Of a stretch of DNA of 64,000 nucleotides, positions 1-36,379 are shown piece by piece; position 1 is the stretch's first letter, and every line of letters begins with the position of its first letter. This DNA comes from an uncultured virus (IMG/VR IMGVR_UViG_3300006128_000009) (Duplodnaviria; Heunggongvirae; Uroviricota; Caudoviricetes): the IMG/VR virus record IMGVR_UViG_3300006128_000009. One strand, 5' to 3'. The notes beneath the pieces were generated by a model. It ran no database searches and was not told where the DNA came from. It saw only the letters and a program-made list of their open reading frames with translations. The position numbers and the translations under genes are program-made.

Positions 1-278
1 TGAACAAATTCGATGTCCTAGTTGAAAAATTATTAAACGAAGCAAAATCATCACGATGCACAAAAGTAACACAGAAATCTCACTCAACAAGAAAAGGTAA
101 AAAGTGGATGAAATGTGTAAAATCACCAAGCGGTGGTTATAAGAGAATTCATTGGGGACAAGCTGGCGTAAGAGTTGGTAAAAATAATCCAAAAAGAAGA
201 AAATCATTCAGAGCAAGACATAAATGTTCTTCCGCAAAGCCCGGTACTCCTAAATATCAAGCTTGTAAAGATTGGTGA
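1..278 (+). CDS. Conserved basic T4-like phage protein (start codon cut by window edge)
   Basis: Manual translation (M)NKFDVLVEKLLNEAK...RRKSFRARHKC...CKDW*; not in ORF track. Confidence 0.7.
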   Translation, partial: NKFDVLVEKLLNEAKSSRCTKVTQKSHSTRKGKKWMKCVKSPSGGYKRIHWGQAGVRVGKNNPKRRKSFRARHKCSSAKPGTPKYQACKDW

Positions 279-297
279 TAAGTAATAATATCATATT

Positions 298-723
298 ATG
301 ATTAATAAATTCGATTCCGTCATCCAAAACTTTTTGGTTGAAAATGAAATACCCGCTTTAACTAATTATATCAGAAATTTAGGAGCACAAGGAACAAATG
401 CTGTAGCTCAAACCGCAGAAACAACTTTAAAAGCAACAACTAATGCTAATCCACAACAGGCTAAAAAAGATCCTGTTCAAAGTTTTGCCGACTTAATTGA
501 TAATAAAAATACACTCTATAATACATGGGATCAATTTGAAACAGATCATCCCGATGTAGTAAAATCATTAAAAGACAAAGGTGCTCCATTGGTAGATAAA
601 AACCAAACACCAGAAAAAGAAGCACCGAAAGATCAATCGGGAACTAATGTTACACCTTATACGATTCAAAGTCCGGAATCTGTAGCATCCCAACAAAACC
701 CAACAACACCAACGGGAAAATAA
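298..723 (+). CDS. Hypothetical late protein
   Basis: ORF; ATAAGTA late-promoter-like motif upstream; KFD..LVE N-terminus. Confidence 0.65.
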   Translation: MINKFDSVIQNFLVENEIPALTNYIRNLGAQGTNAVAQTAETTLKATTNANPQQAKKDPVQSFADLIDNKNTLYNTWDQFETDHPDVVKSLKDKGAPLVDKNQTPEKEAPKDQSGTNVTPYTIQSPESVASQQNPTTPTGK

Positions 724-2796: not shown

Positions 2797-3052
2797 AAAC
2801 TGGAAAGTGATTCACGAAGAAACATCAATGTGGGCTAGATGGATAGCATTATATGAAGCTATAAATCTAATCGCAGATAAATGCGAAGAAAAGGGTATGG
2901 ATTTCGATGATATTGTTTTTAAACCCTTAGAGATAAGAGATTACATCTCTTCTACGGAAGATATTATAGCAAGAAAAATTCTCAATCAAGAATATAATAT
3001 TGATATTCCTTTCTCCGAAACTAATGAGAAAACTGAACATCAGTATGTTTAA
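2783..3052 (+). CDS. Hypothetical protein
   Basis: ORF overlapping upstream gene end. Confidence 0.6.
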   Translation: MKTNKNWKVIHEETSMWARWIALYEAINLIADKCEEKGMDFDDIVFKPLEIRDYISSTEDIIARKILNQEYNIDIPFSETNEKTEHQYV

Positions 3053-3678
3053 TAATCTCCGTAAACATTAGTGTTACTACAAGGATTATCTTCAGGATAA
3101 TTGAAATTACTTTGAGCTAAAGCTTCTAGTGCATCATTATCATTAATAGGTTTATTGCCAACACCAGAACCGGGTGATCCATCTTCGTAACTGTAATCGT
3201 AACGTTTCGCTTTGAAAAACCAAACATAATGTCCACCCAAAGGATTGATTACAAATTCATCTATTACTTCTGTTAATTCATAAACAGAAGCACCTCTTTT
3301 AGGCCAATTAATACGATCACTACCAAATTCAGATAACTGCAAAAGATCACTTGGTTTAGGTTCACTAGATAAACCAAATACCGAAGTAAAATCTTCCGGA
3401 TGTATAACACCATTCAAATCACTGTCAGCGATTATACCAAATTTAGAAAGCAAATAAGAGTCATTAGTAAGATTTAATAAAACTATCATCGATTGACTAT
3501 TTAAAAATCCAGCATCAGGTTCTTCTCCATATAGAACGTTCATTCCTGATAGAGCAGATTTATTAACAAAATAATTTATTTGCTGACCATATATATGAAT
3601 TTGTTCTTTCCACCATATACTGAAAAGATTTCTTTCATTTTGATTTCGTGATTTATCTAAGTAACGAAGTGTTTCCAT
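3049..3678 (-). CDS. Neck/head-completion protein, T4 gp14-like
   Basis: EQIHIYGQ.INY, LYGE, SKFGI, PKPSDL, YE...V, YDYSYE pattern typical of gp14. Confidence 0.7.
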   Translation of the reverse strand: METLRYLDKSRNQNERNLFSIWWKEQIHIYGQQINYFVNKSALSGMNVLYGEEPDAGFLNSQSMIVLLNLTNDSYLLSKFGIIADSDLNGVIHPEDFTSVFGLSSEPKPSDLLQLSEFGSDRINWPKRGASVYELTEVIDEFVINPLGGHYVWFFKAKRYDYSYEDGSPGSGVGNKPINDNDALEALAQSNFNYPEDNPCSNTNVYGDY

Positions 3679-3679
3679 T

Positions 3680-4021
3680 TCAATTTAAATAATATTGTTT
3701 TCTAATAGGACAAAATCCTATTACTACTAAAAAGTTTTCATTACTATTAAGACGTAATGGGCCTTTTGTTTTTACGTTTTCTGGTGTTATATGAGGATGA
3801 TCTTTAAATATTTTCATTGCCTCAAATTCAGGTATCCATCTTCTGATTCCTTTTTTTGCTGCTTCTATCTTTGGATTCTTTTTCTTTTTATGAACTGCTG
3901 CAACCATAGGTCCAATTTTATCCCCTGTGATTCTACTTCCCATCATTCTATTCAACGAATGATGATGAGGTGTTTCCAAACCAAGTTCATCTTTTTCCAA
4001 AAAGAATTGTTTAAAGTTCAT
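3680..4021 (-). CDS. Hypothetical late protein
   Basis: MNFKQFFLE N-terminus; GTAAGTA upstream. Confidence 0.65.
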   Translation of the reverse strand: MNFKQFFLEKDELGLETPHHHSLNRMMGSRITGDKIGPMVAAVHKKKKNPKIEAAKKGIRRWIPEFEAMKIFKDHPHITPENVKTKGPLRLNSNENFLVVIGFCPIRKQYYLN

Positions 4022-4037
4022 TATTAATACTTACAAT

Positions 4038-4063
4038 AAAAAACCCCTCCGAAGAGGGGTTTT
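4038..4063. terminator. Intrinsic terminator (bidirectional-looking)
   Basis: AAAAAACCCCTC-CGAA-GAGGGGTTTT hairpin. Confidence 0.75.
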
Positions 4064-4084
4064 CTAATTTATTTTTAATTTATC

Positions 4085-5014
4085 TTAGTTTTGATCGAAA
4101 AGATATTTGCCTGTCTGAACTGCACCTACATTATTGTCCTTTGCTTGGAGTTTGCTGATACCTGAATCATTTTTGAAATCTTCAGGCTTACCTGTTACTT
4201 TCTTACCCTTTACAACTTCTGCTTTTTTGCCGTTTGACTTTACTGGTGTTGCTGTCTTGATGTAAGAACTTGCTTTCTTGGTGAGACCAGCTTCTAATTT
4301 TTCCTGATCTACGAGAGCATGACCGAGAACATCAGCTTCTACTGCTTCTTCACTGACTTCCTCTTCTTCGTCTTCATGGTCTTCGTGATCTTCATCGGAC
4401 TCTTCTTCATCCTCATGACCTTCATGTTCTTCATCCTCATGACCTTCATGTTCATGGAGTTTGTCTTCTAACTTTGTTACGAGTTCTTTGATTTTTGAAA
4501 TAAGTTCTTCGAGAGATTCGTGTTCTTCCTCTTCTTCTGATTCATCATCACTGAAATAGTCGTCATCTTCTTCCTCATCTTCGTCTTCGGAAGAACGACC
4601 GATTCCTTCAGGACCACCAAAATCACTATCAGGGGTTAATGTGTTATCTGTTTCTGTTGAAAAATCAAATGTATCTTCGGAAATGATTTTCTTGAAAAGT
4701 ACATCAAATGGATTGTTGGATTCCTTATTGAGCTTATCACCCTTGATTGTTAAATCCTTTGTCGAATCGTCAGCTTTCTTAGGTGTTGATTCGGAACCAG
4801 CTGTAGTCAATTCAGAAGGAGCCTCTTCGGGATCTTTGATTTCACCATCAGCTGCTTCTGGACCAGAATCAGCATAGAAATTGTGGGTGTTTTTATCATT
4901 TTCGGAATGACCAAATGGTTTTCCTACTTGCTTTTTGGTTGCGTCTACTGCACCACTGGATGCGTTTTCATTAATTACCTTGAGGTAAGCTGTTTGAAGG
5001 GGATCGAATTTCAT
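4085..5014 (-). CDS. Highly acidic protein, possible prohead core/scaffold
   Basis: Long D/E tract, HEGHEDEE repeat, many L/I-x-E sites, late promoter. Confidence 0.55.
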   Translation of the reverse strand: MKFDPLQTAYLKVINENASSGAVDATKKQVGKPFGHSENDKNTHNFYADSGPEAADGEIKDPEEAPSELTTAGSESTPKKADDSTKDLTIKGDKLNKESNNPFDVLFKKIISEDTFDFSTETDNTLTPDSDFGGPEGIGRSSEDEDEEEDDDYFSDDESEEEEEHESLEELISKIKELVTKLEDKLHEHEGHEDEEHEGHEDEEESDEDHEDHEDEEEEVSEEAVEADVLGHALVDQEKLEAGLTKKASSYIKTATPVKSNGKKAEVVKGKKVTGKPEDFKNDSGISKLQAKDNNVGAVQTGKYLFDQN

Positions 5015-8580: not shown

Positions 8581-9570
8581 ATGAAAAGCGAACTAACTAA
8601 GATATTTGACGAACAAATCAGCCGTAAACCTAACCTCTATCCTTGGACAGAAGAATTCATCGAAGCAATGCACAATGGCTTCTGGACTGACAAAGAATTC
8701 TCATTTAAATCAGATGTTCAACAATTCAAAGTAAATCTCACAGAACAAGAAAGAGAAATTATTATTCGTACTCTCTCAGCAATCGGTCAAATTGAAATTG
8801 CAGTCAAAACTTTTTGGGCAAAGCTTGGAGAAAATCTTCCACATCCTGCCATGCAAGATCTTGGGTATGTGATGGCAAACACAGAAGTTATTCACAATAA
8901 TGCTTACGAAAGACTCCTTTCTGTACTCGGACTTGAAGATGTATTTGAAGAAAACTTGAAACTTGAATGGATTCAAGGTCGTGTAAAATATCTTCGTAAG
9001 TATACCCACAAGTATTACAAAGATTCAAAGAAGCAATATCTTTATGCAATCATTCTCTTTACTTTATTTGTCGAGAATGTTAGTTTGTTTTCTCAGTTCT
9101 ATGTAATCAATTGGTTTGCTCGTTTTAAGAATGTTCTTAAAGATACAGATCAGCAGGTGAAATATACTCGCAACGAAGAGAACATTCATGCTCTTGTTGG
9201 TATCAAAATCGTCAACACCATTCGTCAGGAATATCCAGAACTTTTTGACGAAGATCTTGAAAACAAAATAATACAAGAAGCAGGTGAAGCATTTAAGTCT
9301 GAAGCAAAGATTGTTGATTGGATGATTAATGGAATCCAAGAAGATGGACTCACTGCTCCTATTGTTAAAGAATTCATCAAGAATCGCATTAATGAATCAC
9401 TTGTTCAAATTGGTTTCAGAAAAGCTTTTGAAGTTGATAAGGAAATTCTTAAAGAAACAAAATGGTTTACAGAAGAATTATTTGGAAATAATATGACGGA
9501 TTTTTTCCACCAAAAGCCAACTGAGTACTCAAAAAAGGATCAATGTTTTGATGAATCTGAATTATTTTAA
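8581..9570 (+). CDS. nrdB: Ribonucleotide reductase class I beta subunit
   Basis: EVIHNNAY, VENVSLFSQF, EENIH iron ligands and Tyr; DFF..K.TEY tail. Confidence 0.95.
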   Translation: MKSELTKIFDEQISRKPNLYPWTEEFIEAMHNGFWTDKEFSFKSDVQQFKVNLTEQEREIIIRTLSAIGQIEIAVKTFWAKLGENLPHPAMQDLGYVMANTEVIHNNAYERLLSVLGLEDVFEENLKLEWIQGRVKYLRKYTHKYYKDSKKQYLYAIILFTLFVENVSLFSQFYVINWFARFKNVLKDTDQQVKYTRNEENIHALVGIKIVNTIRQEYPELFDEDLENKIIQEAGEAFKSEAKIVDWMINGIQEDGLTAPIVKEFIKNRINESLVQIGFRKAFEVDKEILKETKWFTEELFGNNMTDFFHQKPTEYSKKDQCFDESELF

Positions 9571-17606: not shown

Positions 17607-18035
17607 TTAATTTTCATTAAAAAAGCCTGATTTTATTATTTTAAAATCATCTTTACTATCTTCAAATACTTTTTTAGCTAATTCATCAGAATTATCTTTC
17701 AAATCGTAATTTATTCTCCAAGATCCAGTGTTATCGTATAACCAAAGATTGGTACTGTTTATTGGATATACATATTCAACAAAGGAGTGTCCATGAATAT
17801 TTTTATCGCCTTCGCTTTTTAAAGTAAACAATACATGAACAATTCTCAACCATATTCCATATTTCTGAAATTTCTCTTTTAATAATATAGCAGATAAGAA
17901 GCAAGAATTAGGTAAAGCTTCTACTTCGGGTTCTGGTTGTTCTAAAGGTGCTAGATCTCTGGATATAGAAGTACTAGATGGTATTACAAATAATAATACT
18001 ATAATTGTTAGTATACTATAAAAACATTTATTCAC
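17607..18035 (-). CDS. Putative secreted protein
   Basis: N-terminal signal-like helix; C..H..D residues. Confidence 0.55.
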   Translation of the reverse strand: MNKCFYSILTIIVLLFVIPSSTSISRDLAPLEQPEPEVEALPNSCFLSAILLKEKFQKYGIWLRIVHVLFTLKSEGDKNIHGHSFVEYVYPINSTNLWLYDNTGSWRINYDLKDNSDELAKKVFEDSKDDFKIIKSGFFNEN

Positions 18036-18067
18036 CTATTAATATTTACACATTAATAGAATCAAAA

Positions 18068-18143
<76 letters not shown>

Positions 18144-18188
18144 GTAAATTATACTTATTAACTTAATCTAAGATATATTAAAATTCAA

Positions 18189-18419
18189 TTAAAAATCTAA
18201 AGTTTCAGCATCATTCTCATGAAGAATAATACCATCTTTAGTTACATACATTCCATCTGTCATATAAATAATTTTTCTAGAATCATTCAAATCTGAAATT
18301 TCTAAACCACCGTATTCTTTCCACATTTGCTTACTCCATTCCAAATCATCTTTTGATTCTTTGATTCTTTTTTCCCAAAGTTTTTGGGCTTTTTTTGTTT
18401 TTGGTTTCCAGTTTTTCAT
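18189..18419 (-). CDS. Hypothetical protein
   Basis: ORF with TTGACA promoter upstream. Confidence 0.55.
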   Translation of the reverse strand: MKNWKPKTKKAQKLWEKRIKESKDDLEWSKQMWKEYGGLEISDLNDSRKIIYMTDGMYVTKDGIILHENDAETLDF

Positions 18420-18462
18420 AAAAAAATATTATTATATTAATATATAGTTGTCAATTAAAATT

Positions 18463-18539
18463 TGGCGGAACTGACGAGGAACGATCTCGCAACCTTATGC
18501 GTGACAGGCAGACGCTCTAACCAATTGAGCTACAGTTCC
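18463..18539 (-). tRNA. tRNA-Asp(GTC)
   Basis: Cloverleaf, GTC, CCA; T-loop ATCGTTC. Confidence 0.92.
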
Positions 18540-18545
18540 GTTTTA

Positions 18546-18618
18546 TAGGACTAGTAGGGATCGAACCTACGACAAACACGTTATCAACATGCCACTCTAC
18601 CAACTGAGTTATAGTCCT
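18546..18618 (-). tRNA. tRNA-Ile(GAT)
   Basis: Cloverleaf, GAT, no encoded CCA. Confidence 0.92.
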
Positions 18619-18625
18619 GAGAAAA

Positions 18626-18700
18626 TGGTGGGAGATATAGGATTCAAACCTATGACTTTTTCGGTGTAAACGAAACACTCTATCGCTGAGTTAATCTCCC
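18626..18700 (-). tRNA. tRNA-Val(TAC)
   Basis: TTTCG-TTTACAC-CGAAA anticodon arm, CCA. Confidence 0.92.
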
Positions 18701-18794
18701 AAATACTATAATATATTAATACAATACATACTTATTGTCAAATTTTAATTTACCGAGCTTTTAATTTTGTAGAACTGGTCGGATAAATATTTAT

Positions 18795-19220
18795 ATGAAA
18801 AAATCATTTTGTTTAAATTGTAAAAAAGAAATAAATTACGATCCAAGTAAAAGTTTTGGAAAATATTGTAATAATAAGTGTCAAGCTGAATATAGATTTA
18901 TTAACATAACGTCACCAAAAATAGAATCGGGAAATTGTTCAGAAGCAAAAACTTTAAATAAATTTTTATCAAAAACTAGAGGATATAAATGTGAAATTTG
19001 TAATTTATCTAATTGGTTAGATAAAAATATTTCATTACACGTTGATCACATTGATGGAAATTCTGATAATAATTTTCCATCAAATTTAAGATTACTTTGC
19101 CCAAATTGTCATTCTCAAACCGAGACATATTGTAGTAGAAATCGAAAAAACTCTAATAGATCATCTTATAAGAAAAGATATAGAATTAAAAATATAAAAA
19201 AGCAGCCGCTCTACCACTGA
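18795..19220 (+). CDS. HNH endonuclease with Zn finger
   Basis: CLNC..YCNNKC; CEIC, LHVDHIDGN..NN...NLRLLCPNCH. Confidence 0.9.
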   Translation: MKKSFCLNCKKEINYDPSKSFGKYCNNKCQAEYRFINITSPKIESGNCSEAKTLNKFLSKTRGYKCEICNLSNWLDKNISLHVDHIDGNSDNNFPSNLRLLCPNCHSQTETYCSRNRKNSNRSSYKKRYRIKNIKKQPLYH

Positions 19221-19231
19221 GCTAATCTTCC
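19199..19231 (-). pseudogene. 5' half of a tRNA (Val-like) broken at the anticodon loop
   Basis: GGAAGATTAGCTCAGTGGTAGAGCGGCTGCTTT then no 3' half; resembles the intact tRNA-Val 5' half. Confidence 0.75.
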
Positions 19232-19232
19232 T

Positions 19233-19805
19233 TTATGTCCAAAGATAACTTCTATACTTAATCAAATAAGTAAAGTATTCCGTATCTTTTTCATGAATTC
19301 TCTTTTCTGCTTTATCGATTTCGTCACAATAATCTAAAAAATTAGACTTACTATAAATTGAATCAATATAATTCTGCATATGTTTTCTTTTTGAAGAAAC
19401 CCACAAATAAATTTCTTCTAGCTTTTTATATACAGGATAATGTGTTTCGTAATAATCCCAAAAATTAGTTACACTACCCCAATCTTTTTTAAGTTTTTCA
19501 TCCGTGTCTTTTAATGAACTTTCTATCATAGTAATTTGTTCAAGACCATTTTCTTCTTCGACGAATGAAATTACAACAGCAGAAAGAAAATCTTCAATAC
19601 GACCATCAAGATCTTTCCATTCTTTAGTGATAGATTTTCTCAAAGAATCATGCCTTGGATTTACAAAGACATCAATCTTATGTTTAATATTCCAAATAAA
19701 ATTTTCAATTCTGTCTTTGATTGTATTCATTAAAAAGTATATTAATCTGTTTGGCTGCTTTTTGCAAGTCTTTTGTTTCTTTTTTATTAAGATTTGCGTT
19801 CTCAA
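19233..19805 (-). CDS. Hypothetical protein (true start probably MNTIKD)
   Basis: ORF ending YLWT. Confidence 0.6.
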   Translation of the reverse strand: MRTQILIKKKQKTCKKQPNRLIYFLMNTIKDRIENFIWNIKHKIDVFVNPRHDSLRKSITKEWKDLDGRIEDFLSAVVISFVEEENGLEQITMIESSLKDTDEKLKKDWGSVTNFWDYYETHYPVYKKLEEIYLWVSSKRKHMQNYIDSIYSKSNFLDYCDEIDKAEKRIHEKDTEYFTYLIKYRSYLWT

Positions 19806-20379
19806 TCAAATGTTCCGGTGTATTTGAAATGTATGCTTGGACTTCATCTTTAAACACTTTTGAATTGTAACCAATATCCAAGAGATATTTTTTTATTTTA
19901 TCCAAAGAAGATTTTAAAATAGAATTCACAATCTTGTCTGCTCTTTGTTTATATTTTTTATGAAGAAAATAAAAAGCATGTGCTACTTCATGATCTATTG
20001 TGGTTTTTTCCTTCGGATGAGATCCTATTAGATAATATTTGTTTGATTCAAGCTGAATTTTATCATCAACTTCCGATATGATTTTATCATATTCATTAAA
20101 ATCCTGTATTTCAAAATCATAATAACAATTCCATAGTGCTGTACATGGAACATTAAATCCAACCCAATCAACTGGATATGTAAACATACCATCTCCAAAT
20201 TTCATGGAATACAAACGCATCAATTGTGATATTGTAAAATTATTTCCACGTATTTCTTTAAAAGGTGATTCATAGAATTCCTGAACTCTACAAAAAGTCA
20301 TTGCTAAATCATAAGAGTTTTCCATCTCCAAAAGATAAACACCTTTATGAAGTTTTATTAGGTTATGTTTTATTTTCAT
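19705..20379 (-). CDS. Hypothetical phage protein with HExxH
   Basis: F.RVQEFYESP, GFNVP, HEVAH. Confidence 0.65.
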   Translation of the reverse strand: MKIKHNLIKLHKGVYLLEMENSYDLAMTFCRVQEFYESPFKEIRGNNFTISQLMRLYSMKFGDGMFTYPVDWVGFNVPCTALWNCYYDFEIQDFNEYDKIISEVDDKIQLESNKYYLIGSHPKEKTTIDHEVAHAFYFLHKKYKQRADKIVNSILKSSLDKIKKYLLDIGYNSKVFKDEVQAYISNTPEHLIENANLNKKETKDLQKAAKQINILFNEYNQRQN

Positions 20380-20388
20380 TTTAAAATG

Positions 20389-20459
20389 CTGCCTCGCTAG
20401 GATTCGAACCTAAACAAAAAGCTCCAAAGGCTCTCGTGCTACCGTTACACCACAAGGCA
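20389..20459 (-). tRNA. tRNA-Gln(TTG)
   Basis: Cloverleaf with T1-A72, loop CTTTGGA. Confidence 0.9.
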
Positions 20460-20468
20460 ATAAACTCC

Positions 20469-21467
20469 TTATATTTTACACCTATCTCCAGAAAAGACAA
20501 TATCTTTTTCCGTTAATTCGGTATTCTCTATTAAATCTTTTACGAGATTTTTCTTAAATGGATTTAATCCAATTGAAACAAATCCACTATTATCAAAAGT
20601 ATATCTGAATTCACCGACTTCTTCTAAAACATCACACTTGTTAATAATAATTTTATTTGCACCAGATAGATTAATAGCATCAATCAACTTTCTGACATTA
20701 AGCCAATTCACAAGTCTTTTTCTACCTGTTGTTGTGCCTTTTTCATTTCCGATTTCAATTATTTTATTTAGAATAGGATCATCCCATAATGATTCGGGAA
20801 ATAAAGGATCAACACCACTCTTGGTATCGTATATTTTAGCAATACCTATGATATCACGAATCTTTTTTGGTGAGAATCCTAGGGAGCAAGCATTATGTGG
20901 AAATGTTTCAGAACTTGTTACATATGGATAATCACCATAGTTGATATCAAGCCAAATACTTTGAGCACCTTCACATAAAATTTTTCCTTTAAGTTTTCCA
21001 TTCCAATGATATATTGGATCAATAGAAGAATCTTTGATTTGTAATCCGACTCTATTTGCCTTTGCAGCATAACACGGAGCAATACCTTGACCAGTAGTTC
21101 CTAGCTTTGGTTTTAGATAATCTACATCGAACTTAATATGATCTTTTGTGATTACATGAGCATGTGGATGTATCTTAACTAATGATGTATCAAAACCATT
21201 TTCTTTGAGATATTCTATCTCTTCATGGAATTTGTTAATATTGACTACACAATTAGGACCAATAATAGAAGGTTTATTGTGAAATACACCAGAAGGAATA
21301 AGATGAGTTTTATACTTTTTATCATTCAGATAAACAGTATGACCTGCATTTGGTCCACCGTTCCAACGACAAATCATATCGTAATCTTTTGCTAATGCAC
21401 TAGAAATTTTACCCTTGCCTTCATCACCCCAAGCAAGACCTACAATGATATCAACATAATCAATCAT
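20469..21467 (-). CDS. purA: Adenylosuccinate synthetase (short form)
   Basis: WGDEGKGK, GGPNAGHT, GTTGQGI, EGAQ, YPYVTSS, GTTTGRKR. Confidence 0.95.
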   Translation of the reverse strand: MIDYVDIIVGLAWGDEGKGKISSALAKDYDMICRWNGGPNAGHTVYLNDKKYKTHLIPSGVFHNKPSIIGPNCVVNINKFHEEIEYLKENGFDTSLVKIHPHAHVITKDHIKFDVDYLKPKLGTTGQGIAPCYAAKANRVGLQIKDSSIDPIYHWNGKLKGKILCEGAQSIWLDINYGDYPYVTSSETFPHNACSLGFSPKKIRDIIGIAKIYDTKSGVDPLFPESLWDDPILNKIIEIGNEKGTTTGRKRLVNWLNVRKLIDAINLSGANKIIINKCDVLEEVGEFRYTFDNSGFVSIGLNPFKKNLVKDLIENTELTEKDIVFSGDRCKI

Positions 21468-22304: not shown

Positions 22305-22379
22305 TGGCTCCTGATACTGGACTCGAACCAATAACTTGCAAGTTAACAGCTTGCCGCTCTACCATTGAGCTAATCAGGA
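22305..22379 (-). tRNA. tRNA-Asn(GTT)
   Basis: Cloverleaf, GTT, CCA. Confidence 0.95.
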
Positions 22380-22393
22380 GTGAAATTCAATCT

Positions 22394-22885
22394 CTATATT
22401 TTATCATTATGTTCTAATTTATCAATAAAATTCTTAACATATTTTTCAACAATCGGTAAAATTTCGTTTGCATATCTACTATGAAGATATTTGTGATGAG
22501 TTGGGCATATAGGAATCAAATTTTCAACTCTATTATCTTTATGATTTCCGTTATAATGATGAACTTCTACTATTTTTGTTTCATCACAAGCAATACATTT
22601 TTTTTCATGCTTATTAAAACAAGTTGTTCTATATGTATGTTCTTTCCAATTTCCATTATTTTCACCAGTTCTGAAAAATTTATTTGAACAAGAATAAGAA
22701 CAAGTTTTTTTATTTTCTTTTATTAAAGTTTCAAACTCTTTATTACATATTGGACACACTCTAACTTCTCTTGCTTTTTTGTGTTTGCAATCTTTACAAA
22801 CATAAGAATTTATATCTTTAATTCTTTTTATTTCATAGTTCCATCTTTTTATATTTTCTTTACAAGAAATACATTGTATATACAT
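22394..22885 (-). CDS. HNH endonuclease with Zn fingers, between tRNA-Pro and tRNA-Asn
   Basis: CPIC..TCSYSC; CIAC, EVHHYNGNH.DN..ENLIPICPTHH. Confidence 0.88.
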   Translation of the reverse strand: MYIQCISCKENIKRWNYEIKRIKDINSYVCKDCKHKKAREVRVCPICNKEFETLIKENKKTCSYSCSNKFFRTGENNGNWKEHTYRTTCFNKHEKKCIACDETKIVEVHHYNGNHKDNRVENLIPICPTHHKYLHSRYANEILPIVEKYVKNFIDKLEHNDKI

Positions 22886-24745: not shown

Positions 24746-24836
24746 TGGAGGAACGAGTGGGATTTGAACCCACGGAAGTTTATTAGACTTCGGAATTTTA
24801 GTAGAATTCTGCTTTAAACCACTCAGCCACCGTTCC
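24746..24836 (-). tRNA. tRNA-Ser(ACT)
   Basis: GAATT-CTACTAA-AATTC anticodon arm, long variable arm, CCA. Confidence 0.8.
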
Positions 24837-28535: not shown

Positions 28536-28611
28536 TGGAGCCAGCAGTCGGGTTCAAACCGACGACCTGCTGATTACAAATCAGCTGCTCTATCAACTGA
28601 GCTATGCTGGC
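28536..28611 (-). tRNA. tRNA-Thr(TGT)
   Basis: Cloverleaf, TGT, CCA. Confidence 0.95.
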
Positions 28612-36286: not shown

Positions 36287-36379
36287 TGGTACTCTCGGCA
36301 GGACTTGAACCTGCACTACGCCAGTGTCGCCCAGCTTCTAGTGTATAAAACTAGGGTTCTACCATTAAACTACGAGAGC
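36287..36379 (-). tRNA. tRNA with TAT anticodon (Ile-UAU) and long variable arm
   Basis: CTAGT-TTTATAC-ACTAG; ~23-nt variable region; GTTCAAGTC; ACCA. Confidence 0.8.

Follow-up and report, generated by a model that had tools for sequence, protein, structure and literature searches.

The 64,000-nucleotide (nt) stretch analyzed here, hereafter the window (IMG/VR record IMGVR_UViG_3300006128_000009), derives from an AT-rich, uncultured T4-like myovirus and carries in its tRNA cluster a free-standing HNH endonuclease gene of 141 amino acids (aa; 18795-19220, plus strand). The gene is flanked by two tRNA-Val sequences, both on the minus strand: at its 3' end the 5' remnant of a tRNA-Val(TAC), nt 1-33 (19199-19231; hereafter the stub), and, past its start and a 94-nt spacer, a complete tRNA-Val(TAC) (18626-18700; hereafter Val'). 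Sequence comparisons give good support to a reading in which a unit consisting of the HNH gene and a tRNA-Val would have replaced the resident tRNA-Val.

The stub reads GGAAGATTAGCTCAGTGGTAGAGCGGCTGCTTT on the minus strand (19231-19199) and comprises the acceptor strand, the full D-arm, the 5' strand of the anticodon stem, and three T's of the loop, after which the antisense HNH sequence takes over, as an earlier note on this DNA had described. It begins one base past the stop codon of an upstream gene, ORF165, and breaks off after the first anticodon base. Taken alone, the half is a weak Rfam tRNA match (19.8 bits, E 0.89); it is nevertheless far beyond chance, because it is identical at 33/33 positions to intact tRNA-Val(TAC) genes (blastn-short of the intact allele against the window, E 6e-14). 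Its first 30 nt occur in 10 metagenome contigs (L149-L158; loci retrieved for comparison carry L numbers), and each time they begin a tRNA-Val(TAC) gene, which is complete in nine and in L150 ends with the fetched stretch. Across the anticodon, this intact allele reads ...GCTGC TTTACAC GCAGT.... The exact 33-mer had no match in viral contigs, while a 24-mer of the remnant was found in two, at the start of a complete tRNA-Val(TAC) sharing 26 nt with the half. No matching 3' half was detected in the 64-kb window by blastn-short, the sole hit being a generic 14-nt T-arm match in tRNA-Ala. Since intact copies are identical over 33 nt and the window lacks the 3' half, the half is, as judged by identity, the remnant of a circulating tRNA-Val(TAC) allele broken in the anticodon, which bears out the earlier assignment of the split gene to tRNA-Val.

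Other readings of the half were considered and set aside. A tRNA-Lys reading, based on TTT in the loop, was dropped on discovery of the intact Val allele. A split or permuted tRNA gene was ruled out, as the window contains no matching 3' half. A group I intron within the tRNA was likewise rejected, given that Rfam searched to E 10 returned no intron family in 17900-20600, that the window has no 3' exon, and that the open reading frame (ORF) is antisense to the tRNA.

The HNH protein matches Pfam PF01844 (23.5 bits against a cut-off of 21.4, E 6e-5) and PHROG 10822 (E 2.6e-27); the Pfam scan returned HNH-type and zinc-ribbon matches only, with no GIY-YIG domain. Its DHIDGNSDNN...LLCPNCH motif and CxxC zinc-binding pairs are invariant in 6/6 closest aligned relatives. 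No match in the phage protein collection spans 80% of the query, and the HNH profile found no match by sequence among solved structures. The protein is 77% identical to its L068/L069 homologs, and the ratio of nonsynonymous to synonymous substitution rates (dN/dS) against the L069 homolog is 0.15 over 134 codons, with a dS near 1, close to saturation. As judged from these substitutions, the ORF is intact and under purifying selection. The conserved core ends near residue 134 (~19196), and the last seven codons (KKQPLYH) plus the stop (19197-19220, plus strand) lie on the antisense strand of the tRNA remnant. The stop codon, TGA (19218-19220), is complementary to positions 12-14 of the tRNA, where the D-stem meets the D-loop, in agreement with its earlier placement in the D-arm of the half.

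Just upstream of the HNH start, an inverted repeat CCGAGC...GGTCGG (18753-18789, plus strand) overlaps GATAAATA in a region conserved with L069 and L070. The hairpin fold before the start is strong only in L069 (z -5.5), whereas it is weak in the window (z -0.9) and absent from L070 (z +0.26). The region resembles the T4 late promoter, TATAAATA, and the inverted repeat is possibly a translational or late-promoter control element.

Val' is recognized as a complete tRNA-Val(TAC) by ARAGORN and by Rfam (66.8 bits), as had been claimed for the far side of the HNH gene. G19/C56 is a near-universal tertiary pair between the D-loop and T-loop of tRNA; Val', with the D-loop AGCGATA and the T-loop TTTGAAT, has A19/U56 in its place. 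The 5' halves of Val' and the stub agree at 24/33 positions and differ at 9/33. An agreement of 24/33 is ordinary for two tRNAs, and the earlier remark that the two have the same layout therefore says little on its own. A sigma-70-like site, TTGACA-17-TAATAT, was found ahead of Val' by sequence scan (18741-18713, minus strand). Since the region holds 11 promoter-like sites against a shuffle mean of 11.2, the TTGACA site alone is no evidence. A TTGACA-like site also precedes the Val-Ile-Asp trio in L057, a locus without an HNH gene; the promoter region of Val' is identical to that of L057 at 64/95 positions (shuffles 59.5 ± 2.5, 23/300 as high), which is not significant. The site reported as a new TTGACA promoter is therefore present, but its newness is doubtful given the similar site before the trio of L057.

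Comparison of the window with L069 disclosed a common block, recovered as a single blastn alignment over 18623-19225 (613 nt, 75% identity), which runs from 3 nt past the 3' end of Val' into the D-arm of the stub and covers Val', the spacer, the HNH gene, and the D-arm part of the stub. Within it the spacer is identical at 74/95 positions (shuffles 61 ± 2.6, 0/300 as high); the spacer half proximal to Val' is weaker (34/45, 7/300 shuffles as high). The flanks are unrelated, with ORF165 and tRNA-Ile-tRNA-Asp in the window and tRNA-Ile(TAT) and tRNA-Ala in L069, and the broken tRNA-Val stubs of the two loci differ. L070, which is related to L069, has the unit at the opposite side of the Ala-geneX backbone that both share. 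The mobile unit likely spans ~18623-19198. The description of the element as a mobile cassette, made in the earlier note, draws its main support from the recurrence of the HNH-Val' block in L069 with other neighbours and another stub, and is weakened by partial disagreement between the HNH and Val' trees.

In the clade of HNH proteins associated with tRNA-Val, the core ends in ...RYR[IL]K[KN][IL], and beyond it the neighbouring tRNA is read to the first stop. The tails of the homologs at antisense loci differ, each being the antisense of whichever tRNA sequence follows the core. The arrangements fall into three layouts. In layout A (sense, 7 rows), the HNH stop lies in or beside the 5' end of a complete Val. 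In layout B (antisense, L071 and L074), the ORF reads across a complete Val from its 3' end as far as a stop codon at the anticodon loop. In layout C (antisense), there is only a tRNA 5' stub, and a complete Val' lies past the HNH start. The layout C stubs measure 33 nt in the window, ~21 in L068/L069, ~26 in L073, and ~26 in L070. A complete Val' is found beyond the HNH start at 4/4 antisense-stub loci, and a second Val at 0/2 layout B loci within the ~6.4 kb fetched. Because the stub and Val' are different alleles in all four, the layout C loci are not simple duplications; the L069 stub is identical at 19/20 positions to the 5' end of the L007 tRNA-Val. A mirror-image case is seen in L120, where a complete tRNA-Glu and the HNH gene are followed by a 27-nt 3' fragment of another Glu allele. 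L122 likewise has a tRNA 3' fragment at its HNH gene, and L102 and L134 have tRNA 5' halves that end just past the anticodon loop.

The same locus was examined in relatives reached via the protein of a purA-like gene (61 loci) and via ORF224 (3 loci). Read along the minus strand, which carries all 16 tRNA genes of the window (ARAGORN), the order is the purA-like gene (20469-21467) and tRNA-Gln, ORF224 (19705-20379), ORF165 (19233-19730), the remnant, the antisense HNH gene, the spacer, Val', tRNA-Ile(GAT) and tRNA-Asp(GTC) (18463-18618; ARAGORN), ORF76 (18189-18419), and tRNA-Ala; Val', Ile, and Asp are separated by spacers of 7 and 6 nt. ORF165 and ORF76 are backbone genes, and ORF165, whose stop lies 1 nt ahead of the remnant, has no family match. 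As a single protein it had no match in viral contigs, and as a two-sequence alignment against metagenome contigs it gave 432 pattern matches, of which 0 were confirmed. L004 is the closest relative at the locus, with aa identities of 78% for ORF224, 61% for ORF165, and 79% for ORF76. Its order is ORF224, ORF165, one base, a complete tRNA-Val(TAC), and ORF76 12 nt on, without HNH, Ile, or Asp. Since the L004 Val likewise begins 1 nt past the ORF165 stop, the position of the stub is the site of an intact tRNA-Val in a relative.

The earlier note had proposed, as a check, to look for related phages with an uninterrupted tRNA-Val of the GGAAGAT type at this locus. L158 carries an intact GGAAGAT-type Val followed 26 nt on by an ORF76 homolog (39% aa identity); the complete Val allele in L004 belongs to a different type (GCACGAG...). 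Among the relatives examined, none lacking the HNH gene carried the same half-tRNA. The presence of the unit is sporadic, with no HNH gene at the same locus in L004 and the unit in other contexts in L069 and L070. The L057 trio has the same 7- and 6-nt spacers as the window and matches it at 73/73 positions for Ile, 62/77 for Asp, and 46/76 for Val; by this comparison, Val is the fast-changing member of the Val-Ile-Asp trio. A different, longer HNH gene (208 aa; 8654-9280, minus strand) occupies the same place after tRNA-Val in L012, a sister phage of L009, and its last codons and stop lie within the antisense 3' end of a complete tRNA-Val.

Contigs of sequencing runs X1 and X2, which may represent the source sample, are continuous across the junction of the stub, the HNH gene, and ORF165. 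From run X3 came part of the HNH gene, differing at 1 position, and a second piece covering 18260-18532; its lack of cover over 19137-19900 carries no weight. The only joint reported was 18147->19208; with 20 letters on one side and 7/46 differences, it was taken to be the tRNA of another organism. Cultured phages compared with 24 kb of the window by megablast gave matches confined to tRNA genes. Elsewhere in the window, a 667-aa ORF shows ~30% identity to rIIA of many phages.

Further observations concern the tRNA regions of this phage group. In L004, cysteine-rich ORFs at 1-612 (minus strand) and 3348-4235 (plus strand) flank the tRNA locus; in both their N-terminal C2H2-like motifs and their C-terminal regions they resemble other homing-type nucleases. 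The same locus contains an odd tRNA-??? call by ARAGORN (3160-3249). A tRNA-Ser with the unusual anticodon ACT (A34) lies at 24746-24836 (minus strand) in the window and recurs across the group, for example in L007 (4954-5042). Calls of tRNA-Ile(TAT) measuring 87-93 nt, in the window (36287-36379, minus strand), L008-L012, and L063, greatly exceed the usual length of a class I tRNA, which suggests an insert or a miscalled long-arm tRNA. A tmRNA with the tag peptide AKTAKYKGHISARVSLVE.TASVA lies beside the purA-like gene in L014 (8150-8537), L015 (1388-1774), and L018 (7192-7577).

The association with tRNA genes extends to the HNH family as a whole. Relatives were found at no fewer than 603 viral and 539 bacterial-genome loci, and the counts given here cover the best 80 of each. 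A tRNA lies within 600 nt of the HNH gene at 74/80 viral loci, a tRNA-Val at 22/80, and, when the window is added, a complete tRNA touches the HNH stop at 49/81. Although tRNA genes make up a small part of bacterial DNA, 71/80 bacterial loci have one within 1.5 kb, mostly directly after the gene. In a tree of 73 distinct proteins (8 identical rows removed), the isotype of the tRNA at the HNH 3' end clusters strongly, with 24 changes compared with 40.0 after shuffling (0/200 shuffles as low). The window falls in a 16-row clade in which 13/16 touch tRNA-Val, and other clades go with Thr, Gly(GCC), or Met. On this evidence, clades of the family appear to be tied to single tRNA isotypes. TRNAs for the same amino acid stand on both sides of the HNH gene at 6/38 loci, against 24/502 adjacent pairs elsewhere, and their anticodons always differ. 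These loci (L083, L084, L116, L126, L137, and L144, with the HNH gene at ~3001-3400 of each) have the pairs Thr AGT/TGT, Gly TCC/GCC, Gln TTG/CTG, and Leu TAA/TAG, which are 55-65% alike. At the DNA level the HNH gene is 72% identical to HNH genes of T4-like coliphages over ~175 nt, and in Yersinia phage phiD1 a related HNH gene ends 7 nt before the tRNA cluster.

Among the bacterial homologs (L161-L240), specific tRNAs follow the gene: Gln(CTG)-Glu(CTC) in metagenome-assembled genomes of Eremiobacterota/Vulcanimicrobiota, Leu(TAG) in Micromonospora and Rhodococcus, and Thr(TGT) in Aggregatilineales. In Calothrix (L213), the homolog lies within a 22-tRNA array. The window itself contains a second HNH-like ORF (22394-22885, minus strand, 163 aa; Pfam HNH_3, E 4.8e-4, below cut-off), which is located between tRNA-Pro and tRNA-Asn, on the same strand as the tRNAs, and stops 15 nt short of tRNA-Asn (22305-22379). 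Possibly this is a further homing gene, one with the sense layout.

We propose, with about even confidence, that an HNH homing gene linked to Val' entered a resident tRNA-Val(TAC) by homing followed by an imprecise join. The process would begin, during a mixed infection, with a double-strand break in or beside the resident tRNA-Val gene of a phage lacking the unit, and the break would be repaired from the donor carrying the HNH-Val' unit. On the Val' side the join would be clean, at or near the tRNA 3' end beside tRNA-Ile. On the other side it would be imprecise, with the end of the HNH core fused to the resident anticodon loop and the resident 3' half lost; as the far flank of the donor would offer no homology, the broken gene may have been joined to the HNH end by microhomology at the A/T run 19197-19202. 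The HNH ORF would thereby have come to extend seven codons into the antisense stub, with its stop in the D-arm, and tRNA-Val function would be supplied by Val', with the TTGACA site as the promoter of a Val'-Ile-Asp transcript. Stubs of 33, ~26, ~26, and ~21 nt, together with the lack of any loss in layout B, would be consistent with a single cut near the 3' part of the tRNA and variable resection. Three points we infer: cleavage of tRNA-Val genes by the nuclease, escape of Val' from it, and a break as old as the insertion.

Several findings weigh against this proposal. The HNH-less form of the locus was not seen in the sequencing runs (X1, X2, X3). In the nearest relatives, L004, L007, and L057, the Val is of a GCACGA type unlike both the stub and Val', so that no example of this exact lineage before the insertion was seen. 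The stubs of L070 and L073 are not assignable to the Val isotype with confidence. Linkage between the HNH gene and Val' is also imperfect: the HNH proteins of the window and L068 are sisters, yet the Val' of L068 is 88% like that of L070 and 71% like that of the window, and the 88% likeness of the L068 and L070 Val' sequences goes with HNH proteins that are ~61% identical. A 30-mer and a 24-mer of Val' had 0 matches in viral contigs and the 24-mer 0 in genome contigs; because Val' was found nowhere else, the case for its travel with the HNH gene comes from L069 and L070 only. Finally, L071 and L074 abut a complete tRNA-Val, without a stub or a second Val, and by this layout the unit is not always HNH plus Val' and a stub could be derived by deletion.

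The last point leads to an alternative in two steps, which we consider possible although doubtful. Here an antisense HNH gene, with or without Val', would have inserted at the 3' end of an intact tRNA-Val, and a later 42-bp deletion between short A-runs would have removed the 3' half of the redundant copy, so that the nuclease would not have split the gene at the anticodon. When the 3' ends of the HNH genes are aligned, the tRNA 3' half present in L071 and L074 is cleanly missing from the window, and somewhat more is missing from L069 and L073, a pattern as compatible with two steps as with homing and an imprecise join. L071 and L074 fall inside the same antisense HNH subclade (support 95/69), and the excess of same-isotype tRNAs flanking the HNH gene (6/38 vs 24/502), always with different anticodons, could mean that such copies are retained where they are non-redundant. 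However, the expected intermediate, a complete Val, the HNH gene, and a complete Val', occurs in 0/7 antisense loci examined (the window, L068/L069, L070, L071, L073, L074, and L012 with its other HNH), and an antisense HNH gene follows the intact allele in 0/10 contigs. Three or four independent deletions would also be needed, each beginning exactly at the end of the HNH core.

A further explanation, mosaic recombination in a plastic tRNA region, would make the HNH gene a passenger or decaying selfish gene and the stub a by-product unrelated to nuclease activity. The tRNA order is different in each relative examined, backbone genes are rearranged between L069 and L070, and the second HNH-like ORF by tRNA-Asn could indicate that such genes accumulate where insertions are tolerated. 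We nevertheless regard this explanation as improbable, in view of the isotype specificity of the HNH clades, the many independent loci in which a stub or tRNA end coincides exactly with the boundary of the HNH core, the purifying selection on the HNH gene, and the adjacency to tRNAs in bacterial genomes as well (71/80), where tRNA genes are scarce. Least credible by far is that the half-tRNA is a working part, whether as a split or trans-joined half, as a signal for processing of the ORF165 transcript, or as a required C-terminal tail of the HNH protein: the stub has kept full identity with the intact allele (33/33) and supplies the last seven codons and stop, but the 3' half is absent from the window, the tails of homologs are unrelated to one another and follow the adjoining tRNA sequence, stub length and allele vary among loci, and Rfam detects no intron or other RNA family at the locus.

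The A19/U56 form of Val' may bear on how the allele would escape the nuclease. Among 686 distinct tRNAs across the fetched loci (35 unscorable), 17 have U56, and all 17 have GA for GG in the D-loop by eye. The form was seen in 6/96 scorable HNH-flanking tRNAs, the Val' of L073 among them, and in 8/445 others (odds ratio 3.6, Fisher p 0.024), in a post hoc, uncorrected test that ignores phylogeny and provides a lead only. SegB of phage T4 cuts many tRNA genes by reading a conserved T-arm motif, for which the T-loop GGTTCRANTCC is needed (PMC2330249). Because SegB has this requirement, the A19/U56 change could plausibly, by analogy, block a nuclease that reads the T-loop. In the window, tRNA-Thr(TGT) (28536-28611, minus strand) has the same rare T-loop TTTGA (U56) with GA for GG in the D-loop as Val', and the Pfam scan found no endonuclease-like ORF near it.

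The usual explanation for the great variation of phage tRNA clusters between close relatives is codon usage or evasion of host anticodon nucleases. The present locus would be a sequence-level example of another cause, in which a homing gene swaps the resident tRNA for another allele and leaves a datable scar. We suggest, tentatively and as a rather unlikely reading, that the HNH family represents widespread tRNA-isotype-specific gene drives, each lineage breaking one kind of tRNA, in many cases close to the anticodon loop or ahead of the T-arm, and bringing in a divergent, presumably uncuttable allele. If true, such drives would explain why Val has diverged most within the otherwise conserved Val-Ile-Asp trio, as well as the tRNA stubs in phage clusters and the same-isotype pairs with new anticodons that flank HNH genes, and the A19/U56 excess beside HNH genes would be an escape change that keeps the tRNA folded. 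Should the family-wide pattern of isotype clades, stubs, and A19/U56 hold, it would point to a general driver of tRNA turnover in phages and bacterial arrays. As the intact target allele, the scar, and the replacement have all been identified, the cut site and the basis of immunity are directly testable.

In intron-less homing, a homing gene is copied together with a flanking variant allele. The earlier note held that the cut-and-replace layout differs from known systems; this contrast was overstated, as intron-less homing, T4 SegB, and T5 hegD come close, whereas its reading of the remnant, the locus, and the block is supported, and the cleavage of the old gene and the resistance of the copy that it supposes are putative. 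SegB is a GIY-YIG homing endonuclease encoded in the T4 tRNA cluster and absent from related phages; it cleaves inside tRNA genes and, when infections are mixed, promotes its own inheritance along with that of nearby tRNA genes (PMC2330249). The window HNH gene is similarly a free-standing nuclease gene in a phage tRNA cluster. In contrast to SegB, its protein, whose cleavage activity is putative, is of the HNH and not the GIY-YIG type, although it may act in a similar way, and the window has a tRNA stub and a linked replacement allele, neither of which is described for SegB in the available part of PMC2330249.

The tRNA cluster of phage T5 also contains homing-type genes, reported as F-Tfl ORFs (PMC2330249). 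The window HNH core is 51% identical to T5 hegA over 65 aa (E 2e-18), with residues 52-116 of 141 aligned to hegA 79-140 of 227, and the full-length domain layouts are not the same. The hegA gene lies directly after tRNA-Ile2/Ser3 and encodes 227 aa with other flanking domains. In the T5 record, hegD overlaps at its 3' end a tRNA-Gln2(CUG) that is recorded as a pseudogene and has the working tRNA-Gln1 next to it; an overlap with tRNA-Ser2 is seen for hegC. The layout resembles that of the window HNH in having a stop inside a tRNA. No relation of hegC or hegD to the window HNH was detectable, and the T5 heg genes, unlike the window gene, have the same orientation as the tRNAs.

Homing-type genes conserved beside tRNA arrays are a further likeness, and the Calothrix array is itself among the homologs of the window HNH. 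The HNH gene all8564 of Anabaena lies beside long cyanobacterial tRNA arrays and has been proposed to spread them (PMC8421152), and HNH genes occur in mycobacteriophage tRNA clusters (PMC6409571). Adjacency and co-regulation are what the available parts of these two sources describe, as opposed to the broken tRNA and linked allele of the window. T4-like phages are known to carry tRNA pseudogenes, which the available part of PMC1524935 does not link to homing genes. In full-text literature outside subscription journals, we found no description of a tRNA stub at a homing gene together with a linked replacement allele. A parallel in form is mobE of phage Aeh1, reportedly a homing gene inserted in nrdA whose two halves both survive and still function together. 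The window HNH shares with mobE its free-standing nature and its insertion into a T4-like phage gene; unlike at nrdA, the 3' half has been lost, and a second complete gene does the work. Set beside these systems, the locus is clearly the scar of a known kind of mobile element and not a new kind of system.

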